From positions 10,393-74,392 of the forward strand of contig JAZDHZ010000014.1 of the NCBI GenBank assembly GCA_043805415.1: DNA of 64,000 bases, read 5' to 3'. The position numbers were made by a program, and so were the translations under genes. Positions 25,290 through 49,944 of this stretch are shown in pieces. The stretch's first letter is position 1. Every line of letters starts with the position of its first letter. This DNA is from Candidatus Omnitrophota bacterium. Its GTDB lineage: Bacteria > Omnitrophota > Gorgyraeia > B26-G9. The notes under the pieces were generated by a model. The model saw nothing but the letters and a program-made list of their open reading frames with translations, did no database searches and was not told the origin of the DNA.

Positions 25290-25375
25290 GTTATTAAAGC
25301 TGGCGGATCCGCCTCGCCGCTTTACGGAGGGCGAGATCTCGACATTTTTCGTTATGCGAAAAATGGCGGACCCGC

Positions 25376-25585
25376 TTGCAACCAATTCGCACCATTTCCG
25401 AGATCCCGGTCAAAATCATTATTGAACCAACTGAAACCATCCCTCTATATCAAAAATTAGCCCCAAAAATCACAGAATTACACCTATTAGGCATGTCCTT
25501 AAGAGCAATCTCCCAAAGCCTAGAAGTAAATCGAAGAACTGTCCTCAGAGCAATTCAATATTCAAGGAAAGGAGGCAAATTGTGA
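25376..25585 (+). pseudogene. Probable remnant of an IS-transposase/resolvase-type HTH domain
   Basis: 69-aa ORF containing LGMSLRAISQSLEVNRRTVLRAIQ, a typical N-terminal HTH of IS transposases; no catalytic domain follows. Confidence 0.25.
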
Positions 25586-26800: not shown

Positions 26801-26950
26801 CTAACCATTTCCAATTGGATTCCAATTCTCCAATATCCCTACCACATAACTGTATTTTCTTTTCGGATTACCTATGTTCTTTTTAGCTATAACTGCAAAT
26901 GCCTCTTTGATTTTCCTTGAGCCATATTGTTTTGTTTTTTTTGCATGATT
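26801..26950 (-). pseudogene. DnaD-like (DDBH2 YxxxIxxxW) C-terminal gene fragment, copy A
   Basis: Minus-strand reading ...KQYGSRKIKEAFAVIAKKNIGNPKRKYSYVVGILENWNPIGNG-stop. No space for a full gene upstream. About 85-90 percent identical over about 115 bp to the copy at 32895-33020. Confidence 0.45.
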
Positions 26951-32894: not shown

Positions 32895-33020
32895 ACAGGC
32901 CTACTTTCTCCAATATCCCCACCACATAACTATATTTCCGCTTCGGATTGTCTATGTTCTTTTTGGCTACGATCGCAAACGCGTCTTTGATTTTCTTTGG
33001 GCCGTATTGCTTAGACTTTT
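32895..33020 (-). pseudogene. DnaD-like C-terminal gene fragment, copy B
   Basis: Minus-strand reading ...KQYGPKKIKDAFAIVAKKNIDNPKRKYSYVVGILE...; a direct repeat of copy A about 6.1 kb away. Confidence 0.45.
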
Positions 33021-34720: not shown

Positions 34721-34839
34721 TTTTCTAAACGCTTAACGCTATGCGCTATTTTTAATGATCAACTTCGTAAAAAACTTTAAATCTTTAAGCTATGCCCCCC
34801 CTTACTTATATGCTCATAGGAATATTAGGTATTTTGTGA

Positions 34840-35802
34840 TTAATTTTTAACCAACGATACTGTGTCACCTTCAATAAGAATCATGTCCTGTCCAGTAGAG
34901 TCTTTACTATATAAAGATACACTACCAACTATTTCTTGGGAATCTGTTGTAAAAGTTATGTCCTCACCTATCACATAAGCATATCTTGTTAATCCAGAGT
35001 TATATAATCCATCTTTTCCCTTAGGATACTGAGAAAACTTTACATCGTTATATTTTGACTTTAAGATATTAACAAACGCTTTTTCAGCATCTGCTACAAT
35101 TTTCTCTTTAGGTAAAGCTGGTTCAGCTAAAATATCATTAAAATCATCATTATAATCAAAAATAGAAATATTTAACTGTTCAATCTTAAAAAAGAACAAT
35201 ATCATTTCATCTGTAATGCGAGACCGTTCCATTTTTGGATATTCGTTTGATAATATTCGAATTCTTTTGTCGTGTGGCTTTATAACTAAGCGTGTCAAAC
35301 TATCTTCTTTTTTTGAAATTCCAACATAATGCAAATGATACTTTGTTAAATCCCGGAAATTATCGAAGCCTTTAATCCCAGGATGCCCCCTCCATTTGTC
35401 AAATAAGAATTTTTCAGTAGTAAACCAATCGACTACTTTAGTTCTTTCTTGTGTCTCCGTATCATTTTCCCATACCCTGATAAGCTTTTCACCAAATTCA
35501 AATTCAAGATCTGTATTTTTAATCGAAACTCCGTGACATTTAAGGATCTCATTAAAATCTATTTCACCTATTGATTTAACATTCTGCGCATAAAAAGTAA
35601 AAGGTGCTTTTAATTTTGATTGAAAATTAGTGCAAATAATATCCTCGTCAATCTCATACTTTCCTTCTTGACGCTGAGCCACCATATATAGGTTACTCTC
35701 TTTCAGAAGTTTTTGCACTTCAGGATCATCTTTTATCCACTCTGCCTCTTGGTTAGATATTGGAGGATAAACAAGTTTTAAAATATTTAGTTGTGATTTC
35801 AT
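34840..35802 (-). CDS. Hypothetical protein (320 aa)
   Basis: ORF only; same strand and close spacing with the flanking genes. Confidence 0.4.
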   Translation of the reverse strand: MKSQLNILKLVYPPISNQEAEWIKDDPEVQKLLKESNLYMVAQRQEGKYEIDEDIICTNFQSKLKAPFTFYAQNVKSIGEIDFNEILKCHGVSIKNTDLEFEFGEKLIRVWENDTETQERTKVVDWFTTEKFLFDKWRGHPGIKGFDNFRDLTKYHLHYVGISKKEDSLTRLVIKPHDKRIRILSNEYPKMERSRITDEMILFFFKIEQLNISIFDYNDDFNDILAEPALPKEKIVADAEKAFVNILKSKYNDVKFSQYPKGKDGLYNSGLTRYAYVIGEDITFTTDSQEIVGSVSLYSKDSTGQDMILIEGDTVSLVKN

Positions 35803-35884
35803 ATTATTTTCCTCTTATAACATTTGAGCTCAGGCAGAGCAAACGCGTAGCGTTTGCGATTGCCTGTAGCGAATCGTTATGCTT

Positions 35885-37039
35885 TTATAATTTTCCAGAG
35901 CTAGCTTTATCTGCTAATATTATAAATGCTAATGCGTCCATTAGAATTAAAAACTTCAAGGCTAATTCACGACATTCAAAATTAGTGAAAATTCCATGAA
36001 GTATTCCATGTCTATTTACTTCGCTTCTAGGGTCAGTAATTTTACTTATGTTACTCCAAAAAGATCCATCTTTTAATTCTGATACAATTACATCTAATAT
36101 TTTTTTGGGATAAAGCAAAAGCTTTCGAGAAATCACTAACTCTTGTAATTTATCAATTTTCTTTTTATATTCCCATCCATCAATTGCATTACCGTATTTA
36201 GCATATAAATAATCTCTAATGATGCCTTCAAATTGTGGACAAATAATGTAAATCGAAGCAACATAATCTTCTTTTAAATAAGCTTGGATTGATTTTTCTA
36301 TATATGAAATTCGATTATTGAAAAAACTTGCCTCTTTCCAGAATGTAATTTTATTATTCCAATAGGTCTCATTGAACTTTTTTTGAATAGTGTCTGCGGG
36401 AGAATCTGTATTAGAATTGTGCATCTCAATAAAAACTTCTGGATAATAATCTGGAGAAGGGGGCCAATTACATTCTTTAAGCTTTTGCATTTTTTCAAAA
36501 GGTTTAATGTTTTTAACAAAATTTCTTTCATAAAGTAATTGTACAATTGGGTATTTGAATTTTAAATCTGCTGGTTTTTTTTCTGAAAAATCAGGGGCAT
36601 TAGGTGAAAAATCAAAAACGAGATGGGGAGTCAAAAAAACTCTATTTAAAAATGCATAAGCACAAGGAATACCATTACTATCAGGTGGAATAATGAATGA
36701 CACATCTGGATTGGGATCAAGCTCGCTTAATTTTAATGTGGTGCCTACCATGTCCTCTGTGAATTCTCCTTCTTTTAGCTTTAATCTATATTGAATATTT
36801 ACCTCTTCATTTAGTTCAACGATATTTTCAATGCTACCGTTTTCTTTTTTAACTTGGTATGCTCTAAAAGAGTTGATTTCTATTGGCAAGTCAGTTTTAG
36901 AAATTTTTTTTAATTCTATTCTCTTTTCAATCTCGGGAATAACGAAAAGGCGTATCATATCAGAAATCGGACGATATTCCATAATTAATGATCGTTGATA
37001 AATAGTAATATTTTCTTTATTTTGGGTATTATTATTCAT
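35885..37039 (-). CDS. Hypothetical protein with C-terminal HEPN-like R-x4-H motif
   Basis: Motif SEVNRHGILHGIF about 45 aa from the C-terminus, in a predicted helical region; N-terminal 250 aa unassigned. Confidence 0.45.
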   Translation of the reverse strand: MNNNTQNKENITIYQRSLIMEYRPISDMIRLFVIPEIEKRIELKKISKTDLPIEINSFRAYQVKKENGSIENIVELNEEVNIQYRLKLKEGEFTEDMVGTTLKLSELDPNPDVSFIIPPDSNGIPCAYAFLNRVFLTPHLVFDFSPNAPDFSEKKPADLKFKYPIVQLLYERNFVKNIKPFEKMQKLKECNWPPSPDYYPEVFIEMHNSNTDSPADTIQKKFNETYWNNKITFWKEASFFNNRISYIEKSIQAYLKEDYVASIYIICPQFEGIIRDYLYAKYGNAIDGWEYKKKIDKLQELVISRKLLLYPKKILDVIVSELKDGSFWSNISKITDPRSEVNRHGILHGIFTNFECRELALKFLILMDALAFIILADKASSGKL

Positions 37040-37513
37040 ATTTTATTAGCATAACATTTAATATAATACCAGTCTGTTTTTCAGTAATTCCCTATTGTTT
37101 TTCTCTTCAACTAACAAGTCTTTGCCTGGAAACATGTCGTATTTTCTGCTTAATATCATGATATTAGCCTAGTCATTAAAATCGGATTTTTCAATTTTAA
37201 GCTTTAAAATCATCTCTTTTTCAAACATATTCTCTTTAAAACGCAGGCACAGAAAGCTGATTGTCATTAATCTTGTCGATTATTTGTCTGATATTCATAA
37301 TGTCCTCTTCCTTTCACAAAAACACTCTATTCCTATAATGCATTGCCTCCTGTTCCAACTAATCAATACTTCAAACAACGTCCCTTTCATCCATTATAGC
37401 TAAGTAATCCATGATAGGAGTTAAAAAATATTCACTATCTATCTTTCCAAAACTTTTATGTATGTCCCCAATATTCCTCTCTAGGTTAAAAATACACTTT
37501 AGGGCTTTGTAAC

Positions 37514-40532: not shown

Positions 40533-40744
40533 ATTTACGCAGGTGAACGCTAGTTAATCCTTTCAAAAAATATCCTCCTGGTTTTTTAAGAACTTTAAAA
40601 AATTTCATGAGAGTTTCTCCCGAAGGCATTGTTATTCCTGTTTCATAACGAGAAATGCTCTTTTGTTTGGCTTTATTTTTTTTGCAAGCTAGGCAAGTTA
40701 TATGCAGGCTAGTTTATTTTTTTACCTAATTTCTTAGCATCCAT
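40533..40744 (-). pseudogene. Decayed XRE-family HTH regulator gene (paralog of 47529-47747) with internal deletion/frameshift
   Basis: Minus strand reads MDAKKLGKKIN-stop, then in another frame ...KQKSISRYETGITMPSGETLMKFFKVLKKPGGYFL. This matches the intact neighbour MDAKKLGKKIKLAR...KQKSISRYESGITMPSIETLMKIAKVLNKPAGNFL. About 14 nt of the HTH-coding part are missing. Confidence 0.5.
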
Positions 40745-40877
40745 ATTTTTCCTCTTTTAAAATGCGAGATAAGGAAGCGTTGCTTGATTAAACGATATTT
40801 ATTAATTTTTTCATAATACGTTTCTCTTTTCAATCAACGTCATTTTTTTCTCTCATTTAAATATCCCCCTCTTTAGC

Positions 40878-41684: not shown

Positions 41685-43949
41685 TCAGAGAATCCCTACA
41701 AATTCAGCTACAAAATGCAGCTTTAATGAAATGTCACCATCCTTCTGATCAAAAACTAATGGTGAGTATGATTTATTTTTGGGAAGAAGCTCAACTCGAA
41801 TGTTAAAACCATCTTCTCCCTTATGACTTTGATATCCCTTAATTGTATACGATCCCCCCGTATGTGGATCTGGTTCTCCCTGATATTGAAAAAGATAAAT
41901 TCCTCCTCTTTGTGAATATGGTCCTGCAGGATTAGCTTTAAAAATACAATAGTCACCATTTTTTATTCTTGGTTCCATAGAATCTCCAACTGCGCGGACA
42001 ACAAACATCGTCTCATCTAATCCCTTTCGATCGACAAAAACCCATCTATCTTCTTTTACTTCCATCCCATCAGCAAATTTACCGCAGGCAGCAGCTAAGG
42101 AATAAACTGGTAGATATTTACTAGAATCTTCACCCTCTGGAATAACATCACTGAAAAACAAATCAGAAACCAGTCTATTGCCATTAACTGGAGTATCTCG
42201 AATATTTGAAAGCCACTCGTTAGCAAGGCTATCAATTCTATTCTTCCACCTGGGTCCTCTCTCATGCCGATATTCCAAACATGAAATAATTAACTTTAAG
42301 AGTTCCTCTGGATGAAACGGGTTTTTTAAAAATTCCCTTAAAACATCACGAAGTTGCCCTATTGTGAGCGGAACGATATTAATTTCGACCTCTTCATCAT
42401 TTGAGGTGTACCAACAATCTCTTCGAAAAGTTTCCGCAGTATTACTATTAATATCAGGTGCAAGAAAAAGACCATAAACTTCTTTATCTGACTCTTTAAC
42501 TATATCTGCTACATGCCTTCTTACTGTCTCACCTTCAGCTGCTTCTTGTCGTGATGAACTTGTTAGAGTAACTTCAATTACTAAAACAAAATTATCAAAT
42601 TCAAAAATCATATCAGGACCACCTCCAGGAGCTGGATGACGAGGCAGCATATCTTCATCAATAAGAAACCGTCTTGTGTTATGTGCTGGCACAGCAATAT
42701 GGTCAATGGCTAAAAACGCCCTCCACACAATCCACTCCAAATAAGTTGGAGGGTCAACAATATGCTTCATGGCTTGTCGTCTCCCCGTAGCAAAAGCATC
42801 CAAATATTCTAAAATATCAGTAACCGAGTCCTCATGCGCTTGTTCTATTGCAAATTTTTCCTCTTCACTTTGAGCAAATAATTCAATTAACTTATACCTC
42901 TCTTTTTCTAATATTCTAACATCAGTCTCAACTGATAAATTCTCTGCACTTTTCGGAACAGCTTTTCCATCATCTGTTAATTGTGATGCCAACTTTCCAA
43001 TTTCATGCAAAGCAAAAGAAGGATTATCCATTGGCAAAGATGAACCTCGATAAAATTCTTTTAAATATTCCACCTTTCCTTCTTCATGTAAAATCCGCGG
43101 TTCTTCTTCGAGAATAGCTTTTATAATATCAAGTTTGTTTTCCCTTAAAACAATGGCGCCACCTCTAAAAGATAACAATCCGGTCATCCTACTATAACGA
43201 ACTGTAGTATCGGCATAATCACCTAAAGTCCCGAATTGCACCCCGCCCTCAAGCCCTTTAGCTTCTAATATAGCCCTATCAAATGCTTTTAAGTTATTCC
43301 TGCCACTCACTTCACTTCGCCTTTGTCTATATTCAAGAATCTCTTTAACTGTCCTCTCCACCTCAGCAACATCATGTTTTCTAAACAATTGCAAAAAAGC
43401 CGCCATCTCAATTTTTTTTAAACCGCTTTGTTCCCGCTCTCTTAATACAAACAATACTTGCAGCAAGAAAATAAATGGCTTCATTATTTCACCCTGAAAA
43501 CTTGATTCAATCTGTGACGGAATCTCAAGACACCGCAATTGTCTTAAAAAAACATCTGAAATTGCACCACTAGAATCGGCATTCACCAATAGCTTTCCTG
43601 CTGGGGTCAACTCATAAAGCTTCCCCGATAATCCTAGATCCTGACAAAGTTCCTTAAATGAATCCTGAAATCCTTTATTAAATTTATCGGTAACAAAACC
43701 CAGCTTCACAAAAACATTTCTCCATTTCCTTCCAAACCAGGACGGCTCACTTCCTGCAGTGCTTATGATGCCCTCATCATGCAATTTTCTTGTAAACGCC
43801 GCCTCTTGTTCTGCGCCATATACATTTCCCTGAAAATGTTTAGCGAACACAATAAGACCTTCTTGAATCCTATTTGGATTTCGAACAGTTGTATTTCCTA
43901 AATCCCAAACTCTTCTCGGCATAAAACTCCTAGTATGCAACAAATACAT
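41685..43949 (-). CDS. Candidate type IIS restriction endonuclease partner of the adjacent two-domain MTase, with C-terminal LexA/S24-like (GDSMEP) beta-barrel domain
   Basis: 754-aa ORF overlapping the MTase stop by 20 nt (operon). C-terminal about 110 aa contains VGDSMEPRIKNGDYCIF, the S24 peptidase-fold signature. The N-terminal 600 aa is unassigned; calling it an endonuclease is an inference from context. Confidence 0.4.
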   Translation of the reverse strand: MYLLHTRSFMPRRVWDLGNTTVRNPNRIQEGLIVFAKHFQGNVYGAEQEAAFTRKLHDEGIISTAGSEPSWFGRKWRNVFVKLGFVTDKFNKGFQDSFKELCQDLGLSGKLYELTPAGKLLVNADSSGAISDVFLRQLRCLEIPSQIESSFQGEIMKPFIFLLQVLFVLREREQSGLKKIEMAAFLQLFRKHDVAEVERTVKEILEYRQRRSEVSGRNNLKAFDRAILEAKGLEGGVQFGTLGDYADTTVRYSRMTGLLSFRGGAIVLRENKLDIIKAILEEEPRILHEEGKVEYLKEFYRGSSLPMDNPSFALHEIGKLASQLTDDGKAVPKSAENLSVETDVRILEKERYKLIELFAQSEEEKFAIEQAHEDSVTDILEYLDAFATGRRQAMKHIVDPPTYLEWIVWRAFLAIDHIAVPAHNTRRFLIDEDMLPRHPAPGGGPDMIFEFDNFVLVIEVTLTSSSRQEAAEGETVRRHVADIVKESDKEVYGLFLAPDINSNTAETFRRDCWYTSNDEEVEINIVPLTIGQLRDVLREFLKNPFHPEELLKLIISCLEYRHERGPRWKNRIDSLANEWLSNIRDTPVNGNRLVSDLFFSDVIPEGEDSSKYLPVYSLAAACGKFADGMEVKEDRWVFVDRKGLDETMFVVRAVGDSMEPRIKNGDYCIFKANPAGPYSQRGGIYLFQYQGEPDPHTGGSYTIKGYQSHKGEDGFNIRVELLPKNKSYSPLVFDQKDGDISLKLHFVAEFVGIL

Positions 43950-45875
43950 ATTCTAGAACTCTATTAGCATTATCTCCCACTTTATGCCCATGAGTTCCAA
44001 ATGAGTATAGATGTTCTACTTGATGAACAATAACTTCATCTTTATATTTTTTAAGCAAATTAATCATCTGACTCTTCGAGGGTATAGAATTTGATGAATA
44101 CGAAACAACTAAAATGCTATCTTGAAATTTTTGAAACAATGAATCAAAAGCTGAAAAAATAGTATCTTTTGAAGAAAATGGCGTATTGTATTTTTCAAAC
44201 TTTTTTGTCTTTGTATGAAGCTGTATTTTTAAACCTTCCCATTGTCGAGTTAGTCCCTCAATAAAATGATAGCGCCGAGTATAATCATTATCTGAACTCT
44301 TAGAGCAATATGGAGGGTCTATATATACCAAATCAGCCTTAACATCTAATTTGAATATATCACCAGTAAATGATTCATTTTTAAACCCATTATTAAATAC
44401 CGCGTGATTAAAGGCTTCGACATTTTCCAAAAAATGTTGCCTCAAATCAATCTTCATATCTCTTCTTCCATCATCATATTTATGACCAACATAAGTAAAA
44501 ATTCCGCGTGCTCTACGCTTCAAACAGGCTCTATTTAAAGCGGAAAGGGCTAATGCCCTCTTGTATTCATTACCAAGCTGCTCAATTCTACTTCTCATTG
44601 AATCTAAAAATTGATTTTCCTCATCACTAAAATATAACCCCTTAAATGTTGTTGATATAAACTTATTATTTTTGAGATTATATGACAACAATATCTCTAC
44701 ATCTTTTTTATCCAACACGACTTTAGAATTTTGAATTAAAGCTTTGGAAAGTTGACCACAAAAAGACATAAAATCATTACTAATAACTTTTTTCTTTTGC
44801 TGTTTAAACATATACGACACACAAGCGCTACCAGAAAAAGCATCAATAACTGTGTCAAAAGGAAGGTCTTTTACGCAATCCCAAATAAATGGTAAAACCC
44901 TATATTTGCTACCCATAAAACGTGTACCTGGAAATTTCTCTAATATTTGTTTTCCTTGCAAAGAAAAATAAGAAGGCGTCTTTTTCTGCGGCTTAGTTGC
45001 TATAACTATAAGATCTTGCCCTGTTCTCGTTGCTGCATTACAACTAATATTTCGTCGAGTTTTAACTGCCTTATATTGAAAATTATCATACAGCTTACGA
45101 ACAAACTCAGCATTTGAATTGGTCAAAAGAACATAAACGCCTCTACCGACTAATTCAGAAACTAAATCCCTTAATTCAATATGGTCTTCCTCATAAAATA
45201 ATTCTTTTGTGTACCGCTTAAAATCTGAAAAACCTCCAACGGGATAATAAGGTGGGTCAAAAAAGACAAAATCTCCTTCCTCTGCATGTTTTTTTACAAC
45301 ACTAACATAATTATCACAAATCAAATTTACACCCTGCAATGCACGGTGCGCATTAAGCAATTTAACTTCTTCGCAAATTGTTGGATTCTTACGACTTCCA
45401 AAAGGAACATTAAATTTACCTTCTTTATTAACCCGATACAAACCATTATAACAAGTCTTGTTTAAAAAAATAAATCTGGCAGCTCTTTTTACAACACTTA
45501 ATTTATTAGGATTTTGTTGTCGTACCTTATAATAGACCTCTTCGTCGTTCTTATATTTTTTCAATGCCCCTATAAGATTATCAAGATCATCCCTCAAAAC
45601 CTTATAGCAGTTAACCAACTCTTCATTGCTATCAGATAAAATAGCTTTGGCAGGTAACAAACTAAAAAACAAAGCCCCTCCCCCAGAAATGGCTCGAAAT
45701 ATCTCTTATAAGAAGCTGGAACATATTTTTCCAACTCAGGAATAAGCTGTGTTTTTCCTCCAGCCCATTTCAAAAAAGGCTGACCTTTAAACTTTCCTAA
45801 TTTTTTTACTATGTTGTCTTGAGAATTATTCTTCATATACAAATTATCTGCTTTCGTTAATTCCTCTAAACTCAA
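43930..45875 (-). CDS. DNA adenine N6-methyltransferase with two Dam-like (D12 class) domains; reading frame interrupted in a G-run (frameshift or sequencing error)
   Basis: Two DPPY motifs (YFFDPPYYP and YIDPPYCS). The N-terminal [11 protein letters not shown]...YFEPFLGEG lies in ORF 45594-45875 and continues in another frame as (GGGA)[25 protein letters not shown] in ORF 43930-45672. The break is at gggggagggg, 45676-45685. Confidence 0.7.
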
Positions 45876-46159
45876 TATGAAACTCGAAAAACATTACCCA
45901 AAATAATTTATTCTTAAGCTTTATAGTCAGAAAAGAACAACGTTGTTTAATTAATATTGCCCTAATCCATTTTTCTTTTTCAATCAACAGCCATCTTATC
46001 ACTTACTTAAACATCTCTCTTACGCATTTTCTCTGCTTCTTTATAAAATATCTTTAGTCCGTCAATTCCTCGACCCATTACATGGTGTGACAACATCCGG
46101 AATAATCTAATCGCGCTTGCATTGTTATTCTTTATTTCTACCATGTATTGTTTGCTCTA

Positions 46160-46465
46160 TTAACTAATCAATTTATCAAACAACGTCCCACTCTTCCGTC
46201 CTCGAGCGTCAGTTTGAGTCATATTACGAAATGTGCTAAATTTATCGAGGATGTTACGAGCAAGGTCAATCGCGCTAGTACCCTTGGTCCCAGTGCGCAG
46301 AAGAATGGCCAAAAGCTCTGACTTACTCAAAGTTCTTGCCCCATTCTTGAGCAATTTCTCTCTGGGCCGATCATCTACTGGCCAATTCTTTATAGCTTGC
46401 TTATTAACTTTACTAATCTTTTTTTCTTTTTTCATTTTTATTTCCATAGCGAAGATTCTTTCCAA
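46160..46465 (-). pseudogene. RadC N-terminal (HhH) fragment; JAB/MPN domain missing
   Basis: WPVDDRPREKLLKNGARTLSKSELLAILLRTGTKGTSAIDLARNIL matches the RadC N-terminus; the ORF stops after 101 aa. Confidence 0.6.
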
Positions 46466-47328
46466 TTATCCGAAAATCCCATACTCCAGCGAGAAATCTC
46501 TGGATATTCATCAAGCAAGCTGCAAAGCCGCGCTTTCCAATTGCTTTGCGGTGCAATAATTTTTAACAAATAATGAAAAATTGTCAAAACTCCAAAGATT
46601 CTATTTTGACTTATAGCAACAGGTTCATGCCACTGCGGATATTTTTTCTTTCTCGGGATATATGGTTTAACTCCCATCTCTCTATTCCAAAGACGGCTAT
46701 GGTGCGCACATATATTGCGAATAACATTTATCGTCTTAAGCCATGATGTCAAAATCTCGTCAGGAATACCATAATGATTTGCTATCTTTTGTTTAATCTG
46801 ATCAGAAACCCCTCTATACATTGTCAACGCACAGCCAAACGACATAATCTCACCAGCCATCCAAAGCGGTAAATACTCATGACAATCTCCATATTTAACT
46901 TTAAAATGATCAACAAATTTTTCTTTACTTCGAGCCACCTCATCGGTAATAGTTTTTATTAAGCGCTCATGTTCTTCGGAAGTTAGTTTTGGAAAATTAG
47001 CTTGATTGGTGTAACCAGATGCTCCGATAGTATGGGCAAGAGTATAAATTAATTGAGTTTTAATGGAGACTTCAAATCTCTCGATAGCATCCATAACAAT
47101 TAAACGCAGCCTACGGTCAAATGTATAATGACGCCACACCTTTTGAAATGTAATACCTGATTTAAAATTATCGTTGGACTTGCGATAGGGATAAAGATAA
47201 CCGCTTAATCTGTAATAATTGACATTCTTTAAGCAATCAATCAGTAAAGCCTTGTCAACAATAAGACCGCGTTTAATTAATAGATCTGCCTGCGCTTCTA
47301 AAGTTAATGGGGGCTTAGTGTATTTCAC
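46438..47328 (-). CDS. Abi_2-family abortive infection protein (AbiD/AbiF type)
   Basis: Family hallmarks: N-terminal LIKRGL, NYYRLSGY; C-terminal VIRNICAHHSRLWNRE (RNxxAHH). Confidence 0.8.
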   Translation of the reverse strand: MKYTKPPLTLEAQADLLIKRGLIVDKALLIDCLKNVNYYRLSGYLYPYRKSNDNFKSGITFQKVWRHYTFDRRLRLIVMDAIERFEVSIKTQLIYTLAHTIGASGYTNQANFPKLTSEEHERLIKTITDEVARSKEKFVDHFKVKYGDCHEYLPLWMAGEIMSFGCALTMYRGVSDQIKQKIANHYGIPDEILTSWLKTINVIRNICAHHSRLWNREMGVKPYIPRKKKYPQWHEPVAISQNRIFGVLTIFHYLLKIIAPQSNWKARLCSLLDEYPEISRWSMGFSDNWKESSLWK

Positions 47329-47528
47329 AGCAAAGCCCCCTATAAAAGCAAAAACCCACCGGATTTCGCATGCTTTTCAGCAGAGGCGCGGCAGGTATGC
47401 TATTAATAATATACCTGATCTTGTTTAAAAAATCAAGTTTTTTAGTTTTGCTTGGCATTTACATTCCCTCAAGAATTTCGGCAAAATTTTATAAATTTTT
47501 TAAACTTTACAAAGCACTCTTAAAATCT

Positions 47529-47747
47529 TTACTCCTCTAAAAAATTCCCCGCTGGTTTATTAAGAACCTTGGCGATCTTCATTAGTGTTTCAATTGACGG
47601 CATGGTTATTCCGGATTCATAGCGTGAAATGCTTTTTTGCTTAGCATCGATTTTTTCTGCCAGCTCGGTTTGAGTTAAATCTGATTCCACGCGAGCCAAT
47701 TTAATTTTCTTGCCCAATTTTTTCGCGTCCATTTTCCTCCTTGACAA
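47529..47747 (-). CDS. XRE-family helix-turn-helix transcriptional regulator
   Basis: LTQTELAEKIDAKQKSISRYESG classic HTH_3 pattern; sits directly upstream of the Abi_2 gene. Confidence 0.8.
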   Translation of the reverse strand: MSRRKMDAKKLGKKIKLARVESDLTQTELAEKIDAKQKSISRYESGITMPSIETLMKIAKVLNKPAGNFLEE

Positions 47748-47921
47748 AGTATACCTAGAGAGTATACTTTAATTGTATCACGATAAGAGGTTATCCAAAG
47801 GGTTTCGTCCCGAGGTAATGCCTCTTTTTTTTATCTCTTTTAATATTCCAATTTTATATTTTAACCCATTCATAAATAACATCTGCGAAGCAAATTTTCT
47901 TAAAAAAAATTAAAATAACAC

Positions 47922-47950
47922 TTGACATTATATACCTTTAAAGGTATAAT
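47922..47950 (+). promoter_or_regulatory. Consensus sigma70-type promoter (TTGACA-17-TATAAT)
   Basis: Exact TTGACA at 47922-47927, 17-nt spacer, exact TATAAT at 47945-47950; about 230 nt upstream of the serine recombinase start. Confidence 0.4.
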
Positions 47951-48184
47951 TTAGTCATAAATAGAATATATAGTTTTTAGCTTATAGTGACTAATATATA
48001 CCTGTTTGAGGATAAAATCAAGGGCTATGAATAAGACCTGCACACAATCAGCTTTAATCAGAGAACCTCTTGATGCTTGTTCTGTGCAAAAGCTGTTAGA
48101 TGTAATTGTCGCAATCTTAGCTGAAGAATACATTACGACTGTCCGCCAGAATCCGAAAATTTTTCTTTTAAAGGGGGAGGTAAA

Positions 48185-49909
48185 ATGAAAGCAGCAATAT
48201 ATACCCGATATTCCTCGGAAAATCAAAGCGAGAAAAGTATTGATGATCAGGTCAGAGTTTGCAAAAACTATTGCCAAGATCATGATATTATTGTTTGCGA
48301 TGAACATATTTATATTGATGAGGCTGTATCCGGCTCTTTGATCAACCGCCCGGGATTGCAGGCTTTGGAAAGAGCCGCGGAGAGCAAGGAATTTGGCGCG
48401 GTGATTGTCGATGATTTATCCCGATTATCGCGCAGTAATCATCAAATGCTGACCTTGGTTTTAAAATTTAATTATTATCAGGTTACTTTGATCTCAGTTT
48501 CCGACGGTATTGTTACCGACGATGAAAACTCCAAGCTGGGCATTCAGATGCGCGGACTGATTAATGAATTATATTTAGATGATCTGCGCAAAAGAACCTT
48601 GCGCGGTTTGGAAGGTCAGAAATTGCGCGGATTCAGCGGCGGTGAAAATGTTTATGGCTATCTCTCTCAGCCTGTAGGCGAACTAAGACTTAATAAACGC
48701 GGACAAGCAAAATATGAAGGCAGAGTTCATAAAATCAATCCTGATGAAGCGGAAATTGTGCGCAGAATATTTAAAGAATTTATTGCCGGCGATAGTATTC
48801 ATCGCATTGTCCATAGGCTGAATGAGGATAAAATCCCAACCAAAAAACGGCTGATCGGCGGCTGGAATATATCCACTGTGTCGAGAATTCTTAAACATGA
48901 GAAATATATTGGTATTTGGGACTGGAGAAAATATAAGAACGTTAGAGATCCGATGACCGGTAAGAAAAAGGTTATCCGCCGGCCGGATAAAGACCGCTTG
49001 CCGCTATTTCGCGAAGATTTGATGATTATTGATAAAGACTCTTGGGAAAAAGTTCAAGACAGACAAAGCAAACTTAAAGGCACCTGGCCGGTAAGCAAGG
49101 AAAGAAAAACTGCTTGCCAGCAAAAAAGCTATGTACACACCAGCCCCACGCATTTATTCTCAGGATTTATGCACTGCAAACTCTGCAACAGCGCGATTGT
49201 CCTGATCAGCGGCAAAGGTTCAGGGTATTATGGCTGTTATAATGCCAAACGTAAGACCTGCACGAATACCCTGCTGATTTCCCGCAATAAAATCGAAGCA
49301 AAAATCATTCTAGCACTTAAAGAAGAAATCCTGACTTCAGAAAAAATTGATTATGTCTATCAGCAAGTGGAAAAAGCTGCTGCCGCAGGGCTTAATCAAG
49401 TCCCAGAATTAGTTAAGAAAAAGAAAGCCCTGCAATCAAAGCTTGAGCAGGAAATCCAAAATTATCTTAATTTTATTAAACTGGGGAATATGTCTAAAAC
49501 AATATCTGAGGCATTAAACCAAGCGGAAAAACAAAGCGAAGAGTTAAATAAGGAAGTTAATTCCCTGGAATTTCAAAAAGCAAACAGTTTTAAAGCTCCG
49601 CCTAAGGAGTGGATTGATCATCGCTTGGATACTTTAAGAGATACGCTGAATAAGAATGCAGTTGCTTCCGGACTGGCAATTAAGGAATTGCTGGGACCAA
49701 TCAAGCTTGAGCCGATTTTAAGCAAAGACGCTGACTTTTACCAGCTTTTAAGCGATAGCGAAAAAGCATTTAAGCCATATTATGTAGTGCATACAAAAAT
49801 TCAAACCCTTGCGCTATTAGATGATGAGCACAAGGGTTCGAATTGGTTTCAATGGCGGAGAGGCTGGGATTCGAACCCAGGGACCCAGTTGCCCAGGTCA
49901 ACTGCTTAG
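48185..49909 (+). CDS. Large serine recombinase (resolvase N-terminal domain + recombinase + zinc ribbon); ORF tail overlaps tRNA-Ser
   Basis: AIYTRYSSENQ (catalytic Ser region), LSRLSR, recombinase-domain and Cys-rich zinc-ribbon (CKLC...CYNAKRKTC) regions. The last about 19 codons (WRRGWDSNPGTQLPRSTA) are the antisense reading of the tRNA. Confidence 0.85.
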   Translation: MKAAIYTRYSSENQSEKSIDDQVRVCKNYCQDHDIIVCDEHIYIDEAVSGSLINRPGLQALERAAESKEFGAVIVDDLSRLSRSNHQMLTLVLKFNYYQVTLISVSDGIVTDDENSKLGIQMRGLINELYLDDLRKRTLRGLEGQKLRGFSGGENVYGYLSQPVGELRLNKRGQAKYEGRVHKINPDEAEIVRRIFKEFIAGDSIHRIVHRLNEDKIPTKKRLIGGWNISTVSRILKHEKYIGIWDWRKYKNVRDPMTGKKKVIRRPDKDRLPLFREDLMIIDKDSWEKVQDRQSKLKGTWPVSKERKTACQQKSYVHTSPTHLFSGFMHCKLCNSAIVLISGKGSGYYGCYNAKRKTCTNTLLISRNKIEAKIILALKEEILTSEKIDYVYQQVEKAAAAGLNQVPELVKKKKALQSKLEQEIQNYLNFIKLGNMSKTISEALNQAEKQSEELNKEVNSLEFQKANSFKAPPKEWIDHRLDTLRDTLNKNAVASGLAIKELLGPIKLEPILSKDADFYQLLSDSEKAFKPYYVVHTKIQTLALLDDEHKGSNWFQWRRGWDSNPGTQLPRSTA

Positions 49910-49944
49910 CAGGCAGCTCCGTTCGGCCACTCTGGCACCTCTCC
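49853..49944 (-). tRNA. tRNA-Ser (anticodon GCT), long variable arm
   Basis: Minus strand GGAGAGG...anticodon loop CTGCTAA...long extra arm...T arm GGGTTCGAATCCCAG...CCTCTCC-G-CCA. Confidence 0.85.

Follow-up and report, generated by a model that had tools for sequence, protein, structure and literature searches.

The stop codon of an XRE gene as cargo boundary in a likely tRNA-Ser-seated defence island of Candidatus Omnitrophota

The segment examined here spans positions 46,160 to 47,950 of a 64,000-nucleotide stretch of contig JAZDHZ010000014.1 (assembly GCA_043805415.1, Candidatus Omnitrophota), which we call the window. Read along the minus strand, it carries a small gene for an XRE-family helix-turn-helix (HTH) protein, a gene for a HEPN protein of the AbiF/AbiD (Abi_2) family, and the 5' end of a radC gene (Table 1). 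An earlier note, made from the letters of the window, had recognized an intact XRE gene, an Abi_2 gene with an RNxxAHH motif, and downstream of it only the N-terminal helix-hairpin-helix (HhH) part of RadC, and profile searches bear out all three identifications. It also placed the XRE gene directly upstream of Abi_2; the order is as described, but 200 nt (47329-47528) lie between the two genes, and in comparison with L002 (related loci from other contigs are cited here by such numbers) this spacer is better conserved than the coding sequence. Taken jointly with the readings given below for the XRE gene, AbiF, a decayed XRE copy (XRE') and one copy of a repeated junction motif (R1'), the segment is best explained as the cargo-proximal front end of an integrative defence island of ~24.6 kb (window ~25364-49944), an account that we hold to be likely.

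The island is seated in a tRNA-Ser(GCU) gene of the Omnitrophota genome, with a large serine recombinase aboard. It belongs to a family whose conserved head consists of the tRNA-Ser, the recombinase, a small open reading frame (ORF) named orf60, opposed promoters with palindromes, and the XRE gene, and whose conserved tail is ~140 nt long; variable defence cargo fills the interval from the XRE stop codon to the tail. The recombinase domain set of an integrative element is present, as are a defined target and conserved ends in independent genomes. Counterparts of the recombinase in L004, L012, L023/L024, and L026-L028 share 66-73% of its amino acids along most or all of the protein, and comparable but partial or split matches occur in L013, L015, L025, and L029. 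The tRNA-Ser gene adjoins the recombinase in the window and in all four related elements checked (L004, L009, L010, and L012), and orf60 gave no Pfam hit. A search of the island's far end for a long direct repeat of the tRNA-Ser gave none; this end was placed by homology to L012-L015, elements that are much shorter than the window island and have the same tail, and the tRNA-like sequence at ~25364 is a candidate displaced tRNA 3' end. Between about 26 kb and 48 kb the G+C content drops (31-38% in the island), and every long ORF in the stretch that runs from 47.7 kb to about 26 kb is on the minus strand. By Pfam and PADLOC, the cargo comprises AbiF, an AlwI-type restriction-modification (RM) system with YfbU, the candidate system PDC-S60, a PtuA-like ATPase, and an AlbA_2/Schlafen protein.

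Table 1. Features of the window that bear on the front end of the island, in descending order of position.
Feature	Position	Strand	Basis
tRNA-Ser(GCU), integration target	49853-49944	-	ARAGORN; Rfam tRNA, 48.5 bits; 3' part shared with the end of the recombinase ORF
Apparently intact large serine recombinase (574 aa)	48185-49909	+	Resolvase, Recombinase, and Zn_ribbon_recom domains
orf60, small conserved ORF directly upstream of the recombinase	48006-48188	+	tblastn, beside the recombinase in L004, L012, L013, L015, L023-L029
Switch region	47895-48034		Opposed promoters and palindrome
NYN-domain gene, 3' remnant of about 28 codons	47831-47915	-	Intact gene at the same position (switch/XRE interval) in L010
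XRE-family HTH gene that closes the backbone, 67 aa counted from ATG at 47732	47529-47732 (ORF 47529-47747)	-	HTH_3, 5e-17
Predicted promoter of the abiF RNA/AbiF unit, TTGATT-17-TATATT	47408-47436	-	Conserved upstream of Abi_2 in L001-L006, L007, L010
abiF-motif RNA hairpin with U-tract, candidate RNA antitoxin/attenuator	47343-47395	-	CCUGCC-G-CGC-CUCU...GCG-AAAUCC-GGUGGG
AbiF/AbiD (Abi_2) HEPN protein, 296 aa, GTG start, putative toxin/effector	46438-47328	-	Abi_2 PF07751, 1.9e-58, profile 2-184/184; PADLOC AbiD, 4.7e-78; RNICAHH
radC 5' remnant, HhH/UPF0758_N part only	46193-46446 (ORF as read 46160-46465)	-	UPF0758_N PF20582, 2.6e-24, profile 1-61/77
Motif copy R1, GGGACGTTGTTTGA-TAA-ATTGATTAGTT, abuts the radC breakpoint	46162-46189 (extended 46130-46197)	-	Self-comparison
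R2, degenerate relative of the motif 5' half (GCTGTTGATTGA), between orf45 (46007-46144) and the methyltransferase	45939-46020	-	72% over 82 nt to 40791-40870, E = 2e-6
R2', exact half-site GACGTTGATTGA at 40830-40841, between YfbU and XRE'	40791-40870	-	72% to R2
XRE pseudogene (XRE')	40554-40773	-	69.5% identity over 223 columns, E = 6e-25, 40554-40762 vs 47529-47747 (self-comparison of 25-50.5 kb)
Metallophosphoesterase and STAND NTPase (MPE-STAND), 1000 aa	37514-40516	-	PADLOC candidate system PDC-S60, 3.9e-62
Motif copy R1', GGGACGTTGTTTGA-AGT-ATTGATTAGTT	37357-37384 (extended 37325-37397)	-	Identical 28-mer in L021 and L022
GmrSD/DUF262 gene, 5' remnant (MNIRQIIDKINDNQL...), stop and frameshift	37200-37339	-	tblastn vs 748-aa protein of L022
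Distal terminus of the island	25355-25492	-	73% identity over 139 nt to the end of short elements L012-L015; ends tRNA-like ...GGGTCCGCCA (CCGCCA) at ~25364

The switch region holds two opposed predicted promoters. One, TTGACA-17-TATAAT at 47922-47950 (+), is perfect at 12 of 12 positions, points toward orf60 and the recombinase, and is overlapped by the perfect palindrome TATACCTTTAAAGGTATA at 47931-47948; the other, TTGATT-17-TATATT at 48021-47993 (-), points toward XRE. This block is common to L004, L009, L010, L012, L013, L015, and L029 at 72-89% identity, and half-sites of the palindrome are kept in L009, L023, and L026. The homologues of XRE (n = 1045) are mostly 67 aa long and 76-97% identical, and many come from Omnitrophota; because of this length, we take the ATG at 47732 as the true start. 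Among the fetched loci that carry one (L004, L009, L010, L012, L013, L015, and L023-L029), amino acid identity is 73-88%. Every distinct XRE locus fetched has, where its contig reaches, XRE divergent from orf60 and the serine recombinase module or from remnants of that module, and contigs that break off just upstream of XRE are uninformative on this linkage. A search of IMG/VR for XRE relatives gave nothing useful. From this arrangement we infer that XRE is the island's own Cro/CI-like switch regulator, which probably binds the predicted operator TATACC-N6-GGTATA, the palindrome overlapping the recombinase-side promoter.

All related loci lose their homology to the window at 47528/47529, the XRE stop codon, and what follows varies. 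AbiF comes next in L004, in L010, and in the window itself; in L009 it is an AAA_15 ATPase, in L023 HsdMS with SIR2 and DUF87, in L026 a C5 methyltransferase with AAA_5 and DUF2357 (McrBC-like genes), and in L029 PLD. The gene after XRE is convergent in L012-L019, and in L012 it is an unknown gene. The loci compared (L004, L009, L010/11, L012-19, L023-25, L026-28, and L029) amount to about seven further distinct cargo kinds. Read this way, the sequences argue that XRE is not a dedicated Abi_2 regulator and that the unit of organization is a backbone followed by cargo. The backbone itself has a scar: window 47915-46366 can be aligned to L010:1064-2577, L010:633-1063 has no counterpart in the window, and the NYN Pfam hit lies at L010:656-1147, an alignment by which the NYN remnant is a deletion scar inside the backbone.

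Some further features adjoin the XRE gene. A promoter, TTGACA-16-TATACT (+, within 47741-47832), overlaps the XRE start and a palindrome, GTATACCTAGAGAGTATAC (47749-47767), and is followed by a plus-strand terminator at 47812-47832, an arrangement also conserved in L010; 47741-47832 (+) may encode a short divergent RNA or serve as a second operator. Directly behind the XRE stop, L004 (4706-4850) and L026 (6205-6350) share a unit of ~140 nt made up of a promoter, a short transcript, and an intrinsic terminator. A very similar terminator ends L021 1-110 (-), downstream of the two junction motifs of that contig, and this stretch may be a small RNA gene.

By its sequence, the first cargo unit is self-contained, with a predicted sigma-70 promoter, a candidate abiF-motif RNA with a U-tract, and AbiF/AbiD. 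The U-tract after the hairpin, UUUUUGCUUUU, makes a terminator-like element, at the sequence level, between the RNA and the toxin ORF. Promoter, hairpin, and terminator-like tract are conserved in L001-L006, L007, and L010, and the first two are kept even at an Abi_2 identity of 28-53%. The predicted fold of the spacer contains the hairpin. When its 9 pairs were compared across 10 sequences, all 90 cells were standard, and two pairs had changed on both sides; outer pair 5 occurs as C-G, U-A, and A-U, and inner pair 1 as C-G, A-U, and G-U. In L007, an Oscillospiraceae contig with an Abi_2 protein 28% identical to that of the window, the element in the same register scores 48 bits against the Rfam model RF03085, above threshold. 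Homologues of Abi_2 are numerous (n = 1943), and a genome scan with the window protein returned five loci only. Those found without XRE (L001, L002, L003, L005, L006, and L007) all have their own promoter and abiF hairpin.

This organization resembles a characterized system. In AbiFCd-RCd22 of Clostridioides difficile, an abiF-motif noncoding RNA (ncRNA) represses abiF transcription and neutralizes the toxin by direct binding, in a type III-like manner (Saunier et al. 2025, PMC12373285). The two share an Abi_2 HEPN protein with RNxxxH and, upstream, a same-strand promoter, an abiF-type hairpin (in the window a sub-threshold candidate), and a U-rich tract, and in the window, as in the abiF ncRNA family (RF03085), the stem is kept by compensatory changes. 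The window has one hairpin whereas RCd22 has two abiF motifs, and its host phylum is Omnitrophota rather than that of C. difficile; the window system is known here from sequence alone. By analogy (PMC12373285), the most likely mechanism is RNA control of the C. difficile type, in which the abiF RNA would lower read-through into abiF and neutralize the toxin, and the AbiF RNase would be set free when infection leads to loss of the RNA. In L006 (4650-5000), two tandem units of promoter and abiF hairpin precede Abi_2, an arrangement that recalls the two motifs of RCd22.

A second trace of the same backbone lies further into the island. The earlier note had reported a decayed XRE paralog before the 1000-residue metallophosphoesterase protein, and the alignment in Table 1 confirms it; the copy is interrupted by a stop following codon 11, has lost 12 nt of the HTH, and is frameshifted. 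XRE' is 65-70% identical to the XRE genes of all related loci. Its XRE homology ends at 40554, and the homology of the MPE-STAND cassette to L031 begins at the next base, 40555, the same stop-codon boundary as in the live backbone. On this sequence evidence, XRE' is most likely the scar of an older junction between backbone and cargo. It would have been left from an earlier island head and retained when a newer head and cargo were added, with the recombinase side lost, either by tandem integration followed by deletion or by recombination between XRE genes. Upstream of XRE', a switch sequence could be matched only at the word TCAAGCA and in a forced MAFFT alignment, which was not significant. 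A comparable internal scar is seen in L009 (7180-7566), where an XRE fragment is fused behind a macro-domain-like coding remnant.

Another junction lies downstream of AbiF. Full-length RadC of L002 (233 aa) matches the window only at 46396-46202 (residues 9-73, 80% identity, E = 6e-29), and DNA homology to the L002 radC gene covers 46446-46193, which puts the window breakpoint at 46193-46202. The JAB/MPN part (PF04002) gave no Pfam hit, and tblastn with full-length L002 RadC found none in the whole window. Like the RadC/UPF0758 proteins of mobile elements, which combine an HhH N-domain with JAB/MPN, the window ORF keeps UPF0758_N; unlike them, it lacks JAB/MPN and runs on into unrelated junction sequence, so that it is a remnant and not a RadC gene. 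In L002 the order is Abi_2, full-length RadC, and a type I RM system, and L010 has a shorter radC stub of 33 aa after a divergent Abi_2. Because the two stubs differ in length, their sequences indicate that radC was cut independently at different points in the window and in L010, which is consistent with cargo replacement downstream of AbiF. In the window, radC would have been cut after about 76 codons and joined to a segment that begins with the 28-nt motif R1. The view of the earlier note that cargo turns over repeatedly is supported: cargo of the island has been exchanged at junctions that are discrete and recur, and the radC fragment marks one of them.

R1 has a counterpart, R1', beyond the MPE-STAND gene. 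The two 28-mers agree at 25 of 28 positions, with the three differences and the peptide readings (...GTLFDKLIS and ...GTLFEVLISW) that had been reported for them, and similarity extends over 68 nt (46130-46197 vs 37325-37392, 73.5% identity, E = 2e-6). The sequence at 37.3 kb had been taken for a second RadC-like stub, both stubs marking recombination junctions. The radC fragment does lie at a junction, but the other stub is not RadC: no RadC match was found at 37.2-37.5 kb (E <= 10), RadC homology stops at ~46193-46202, before the motif, and what follows R1' is a remnant of a GmrSD gene. This remnant matches residues 36-71 of an L022 protein that has a GmrSD_N Pfam hit (80.6% identity, E = 5e-11), and its DNA is collinear with L022:3629-3770 (blastn, 77.6% over 143 nt, E = 5e-25). 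R1' is followed by 60 nt and then by the first ~36 codons of the GmrSD gene, and it would mark where a GmrSD/DUF262 cassette, now mostly deleted, began on its 5' side. Scanning metagenomes for GACGTTGTTTGANNNATTGATTAG gave two contigs. In L022 the identical 28-mer has a SIR2-HerA pair on one side and, on the other, a small ORF with a GmrSD_N/AlbA_2 gene after it, and in L021 two copies, 51 nt apart, follow a trypsin-like peptidase gene. The five full copies vary in the central triplet only. MPE-STAND homology to L030 and L031 ends before R1', which assigns the motif to the cassette downstream, at its 5' side. An exact half-site, GACGTTGWTTGA, has three occurrences in the window (R1, R1', and R2'), each of them on the minus strand and at a module boundary, against a shuffle expectation of 0.47 matches counted at up to one mismatch. 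R2 and R2' are A-rich and only 72% identical, and taken alone they are moderately supported. Just downstream of R2, in 45940-45965 (-), is a perfect 12-nt palindrome, AACAACGTTGTT, which contains the motif word ACGTTGTT.

The motif is a small, real feature. A search of IMG/VR for it gave nothing useful, and Rfam scans of the R1 and R1' regions gave only chance-level hits. Two candidates were set aside: R1 as the radC 3' end was rejected when alignment with the L002 radC terminus gave no convincing match, and a leader peptide (MKGTLFEVLIS) is unlikely, the five copies having no synonymous variation and only non-synonymous changes. Three readings are left. We place first a leader or operator of the cassette that lies downstream, then junction sequence that was simply inherited, and last a recombination site. 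The first, in which the motif is a promoter-proximal site bound by a regulator acting in trans, or else the start of a transcript, and is carried by two window cassettes, is a tentative choice to which we give somewhat less than an even chance. In its favor, the three complete copies have a -10-like box (TATAAT, TAGTAAT, and TAAATTAT) about 7 nt upstream of GGGAC; TTG(T/A)TT direct repeats occur at 11-nt spacing; the position of the motif, collinear with the GmrSD start in window and L022 and beyond the end of MPE-STAND homology, suits it; and the absence of synonymous-type variation argues for constraint on nucleic acid rather than on peptide. However, a promoter scan gave no full -35/-10 pair at the motif sites, no regulator was identified, and R1 has no -10-like box because the radC junction cuts there.

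A different account of the segment takes XRE and its effector as a functional, mobile unit in which each XRE regulates the gene downstream (Abi_2 or MPE-STAND), as BrxR/CapW or RM controllers do, and we judge it unlikely. It is close to the modular regulator-effector organization proposed in the earlier note, of which one part stands, since the XRE family does precede many different defence systems, and the other does not, since XRE is constantly tied to the recombinase, orf60, and switch module while the effector varies. XRE' ends about 14-38 nt before the MPE-STAND start, which is too tight for a promoter, a second, truncated XRE copy in L009 (7411-7502) lies 64 nt before the second effector there, a PLD-helicase gene, and the abiF promoter contains a half-palindrome-like site, all of which count in its favor. 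Against such a unit, Abi_2 homologues lacking XRE keep the same promoter and RNA, neither of the two loci with MPE-STAND homologues (L030 and L031) has an XRE gene before them, XRE' is a pseudogene yet MPE-STAND is intact, and a convergent gene follows XRE in L012-L019.

Several observations count against the island account that we prefer. Of about 8 distinct element types, 3 have XRE next to AbiF. The abiF promoter is similar to the switch promoter on the XRE side, and it holds a match to the palindrome pattern with 2 mismatches at 47410-47427, and because of these two resemblances XRE may exert some control over abiF. The best Rfam match in the spacer is RF03085 over the full model (1-37) at 16.6 bits, below the gathering score of 37; the terminal loop in the window has 12 nt against about 7 in the model, which brings the score below this threshold. 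Neither a recombinase fragment nor a second tail was found beside XRE', so that a history of tandem integration is read from the junction position alone. The 28-nt motif is not explained by the island. Finally, the sample of XRE loci is small and comes from a few exact-protein look-ups, and the account is computational throughout, with XRE binding sites, promoter activity, and RNA antitoxin function all predicted.

It could also be supposed that GGGACGTTGTTTGA-NNN-ATTGATTAGTT, the R2/R2' half-sites, and the XRE-stop boundary are recombination sites of an undescribed cassette-capture system, which would shuffle whole defence modules between Omnitrophota islands with sites and a recombinase different from those of integrons. 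We find this highly doubtful, both for the system and for the motif as a site-specific, integron-like site of capture or exchange within islands. The motif shares with integron attC its position as a short conserved sequence at boundaries between co-oriented cassettes: its exact half-sites are placed as described above, it marks boundaries in two unrelated contigs (SIR2-HerA before GmrSD in L022, and two copies after the peptidase in L021), its flanks differ on both sides, its variation is limited to the central triplet, and the island genes all have one orientation. Unlike an integron, however, the island shows no IntI/Phage_integrase hit, and no tyrosine recombinase or second recombinase, among its ORFs scanned; the motif lacks dyad symmetry and inverted-repeat architecture and forms no stable single-strand fold (z from -1.3 to +1.2), for which reason attC-like folding was rejected; it is absent from most junctions in the island and in L022; and only five copies are known. 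R1' and the L022 motif, moreover, both stay joined to one GmrSD gene downstream, a pattern compatible with plain common descent. That the repeats are chance similarities of AT-rich DNA can be given next to no credence and is refuted for XRE' and R1. The island has 31-38% G+C, and R2/R2' are A-rich and 72% identical, which would suit chance; against it stand the E values (6e-25 for XRE and XRE', 2e-6 for R1 and for R2), the 0 of 20 window shuffles that gave a match to the 28-mer at <=6 mismatches, and the identical 28-mer that recurs with matching flanks in two independent metagenome contigs.

The components of the island are of known kinds, to which the island family and the sub-threshold abiF RNA add new members. 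Like integrative defence islands at Escherichia coli hotspots (PMC10121019), P2/P4 hotspots (PMC9122126), and pipolins (PMC11551731), it combines conserved ends and tRNA integration with a sharply bounded variable defence region and scars of mosaic exchange. It differs from them in its large serine recombinase ORF, which runs into tRNA-Ser, in its cargo boundary at the stop codon of a 67-aa XRE gene, and in its hosts, which are Omnitrophota and related uncultured bacteria. As a small HTH protein upstream of many defence systems, XRE resembles the BrxR/CapW WYL regulators (PMC9122601) and the C proteins of type II RM systems (PMC12255303). Unlike BrxR/CapW, it is an XRE/HTH_3 protein without WYL and has the recombinase module, not a defence system, as its constant partner; unlike an RM C protein, XRE' lies downstream of the methyltransferase, restriction endonuclease, and YfbU genes rather than upstream of the endonuclease, and the intact XRE is followed by the abiF unit.

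For annotation, the XRE gene should be read as part of the integration and switch module and not as a partner of AbiF. AbiF in this lineage has a candidate RNA partner missed by the Rfam threshold, which would extend AbiF-ncRNA pairing to Omnitrophota; AbiF-ncRNA systems have been proposed as relatives of Cas13 ancestors (PMC12373285). The conserved head, conserved tail, and stop-codon cargo boundary offer an easy way to mine candidate phyla that have been little studied for their defence cargo. The 28-nt motif is identical in three unrelated contexts, each time between defence modules, and if it were a true recombination or regulatory site, it would show how islands exchange or co-regulate their cargo.

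Other features were seen elsewhere in the island. The AlwI-type RM system has a double D12-class methyltransferase at 43930-45875 (-), present as two overlapping ORFs (45594-45875 and 43930-45672) that are split by a frameshift in the region of the first FxGxG motif, which could be real decay or an assembly error. Its AlwI-family restriction endonuclease (41685-43949, -) is unusual in having a Peptidase_S24 (LexA-like) domain fused at the C terminus (residues 620-735). A direct repeat (26826-26940 vs 32906-33020; 115 nt, 82% identity, E = 5e-24) precedes two different cargo genes and is probably what the earlier note called DnaD fragments. An intergenic patch at 34721-34799 is 76% identical to L022:55-140 and lies downstream of unrelated genes in both. 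Rfam scanning of the 34.6-36 kb region gave chance-level hits only, with no match for a hairpin leader at 35795-35885 (-; minimum free energy -27.2 kcal/mol, z = -4.3). This leader stands directly before the ribosome-binding site of a 320-aa ORF (34840-35802), and ~75 nt of it are near-identical, with one compensatory pair, upstream of an unrelated trypsin-like peptidase gene in L021.

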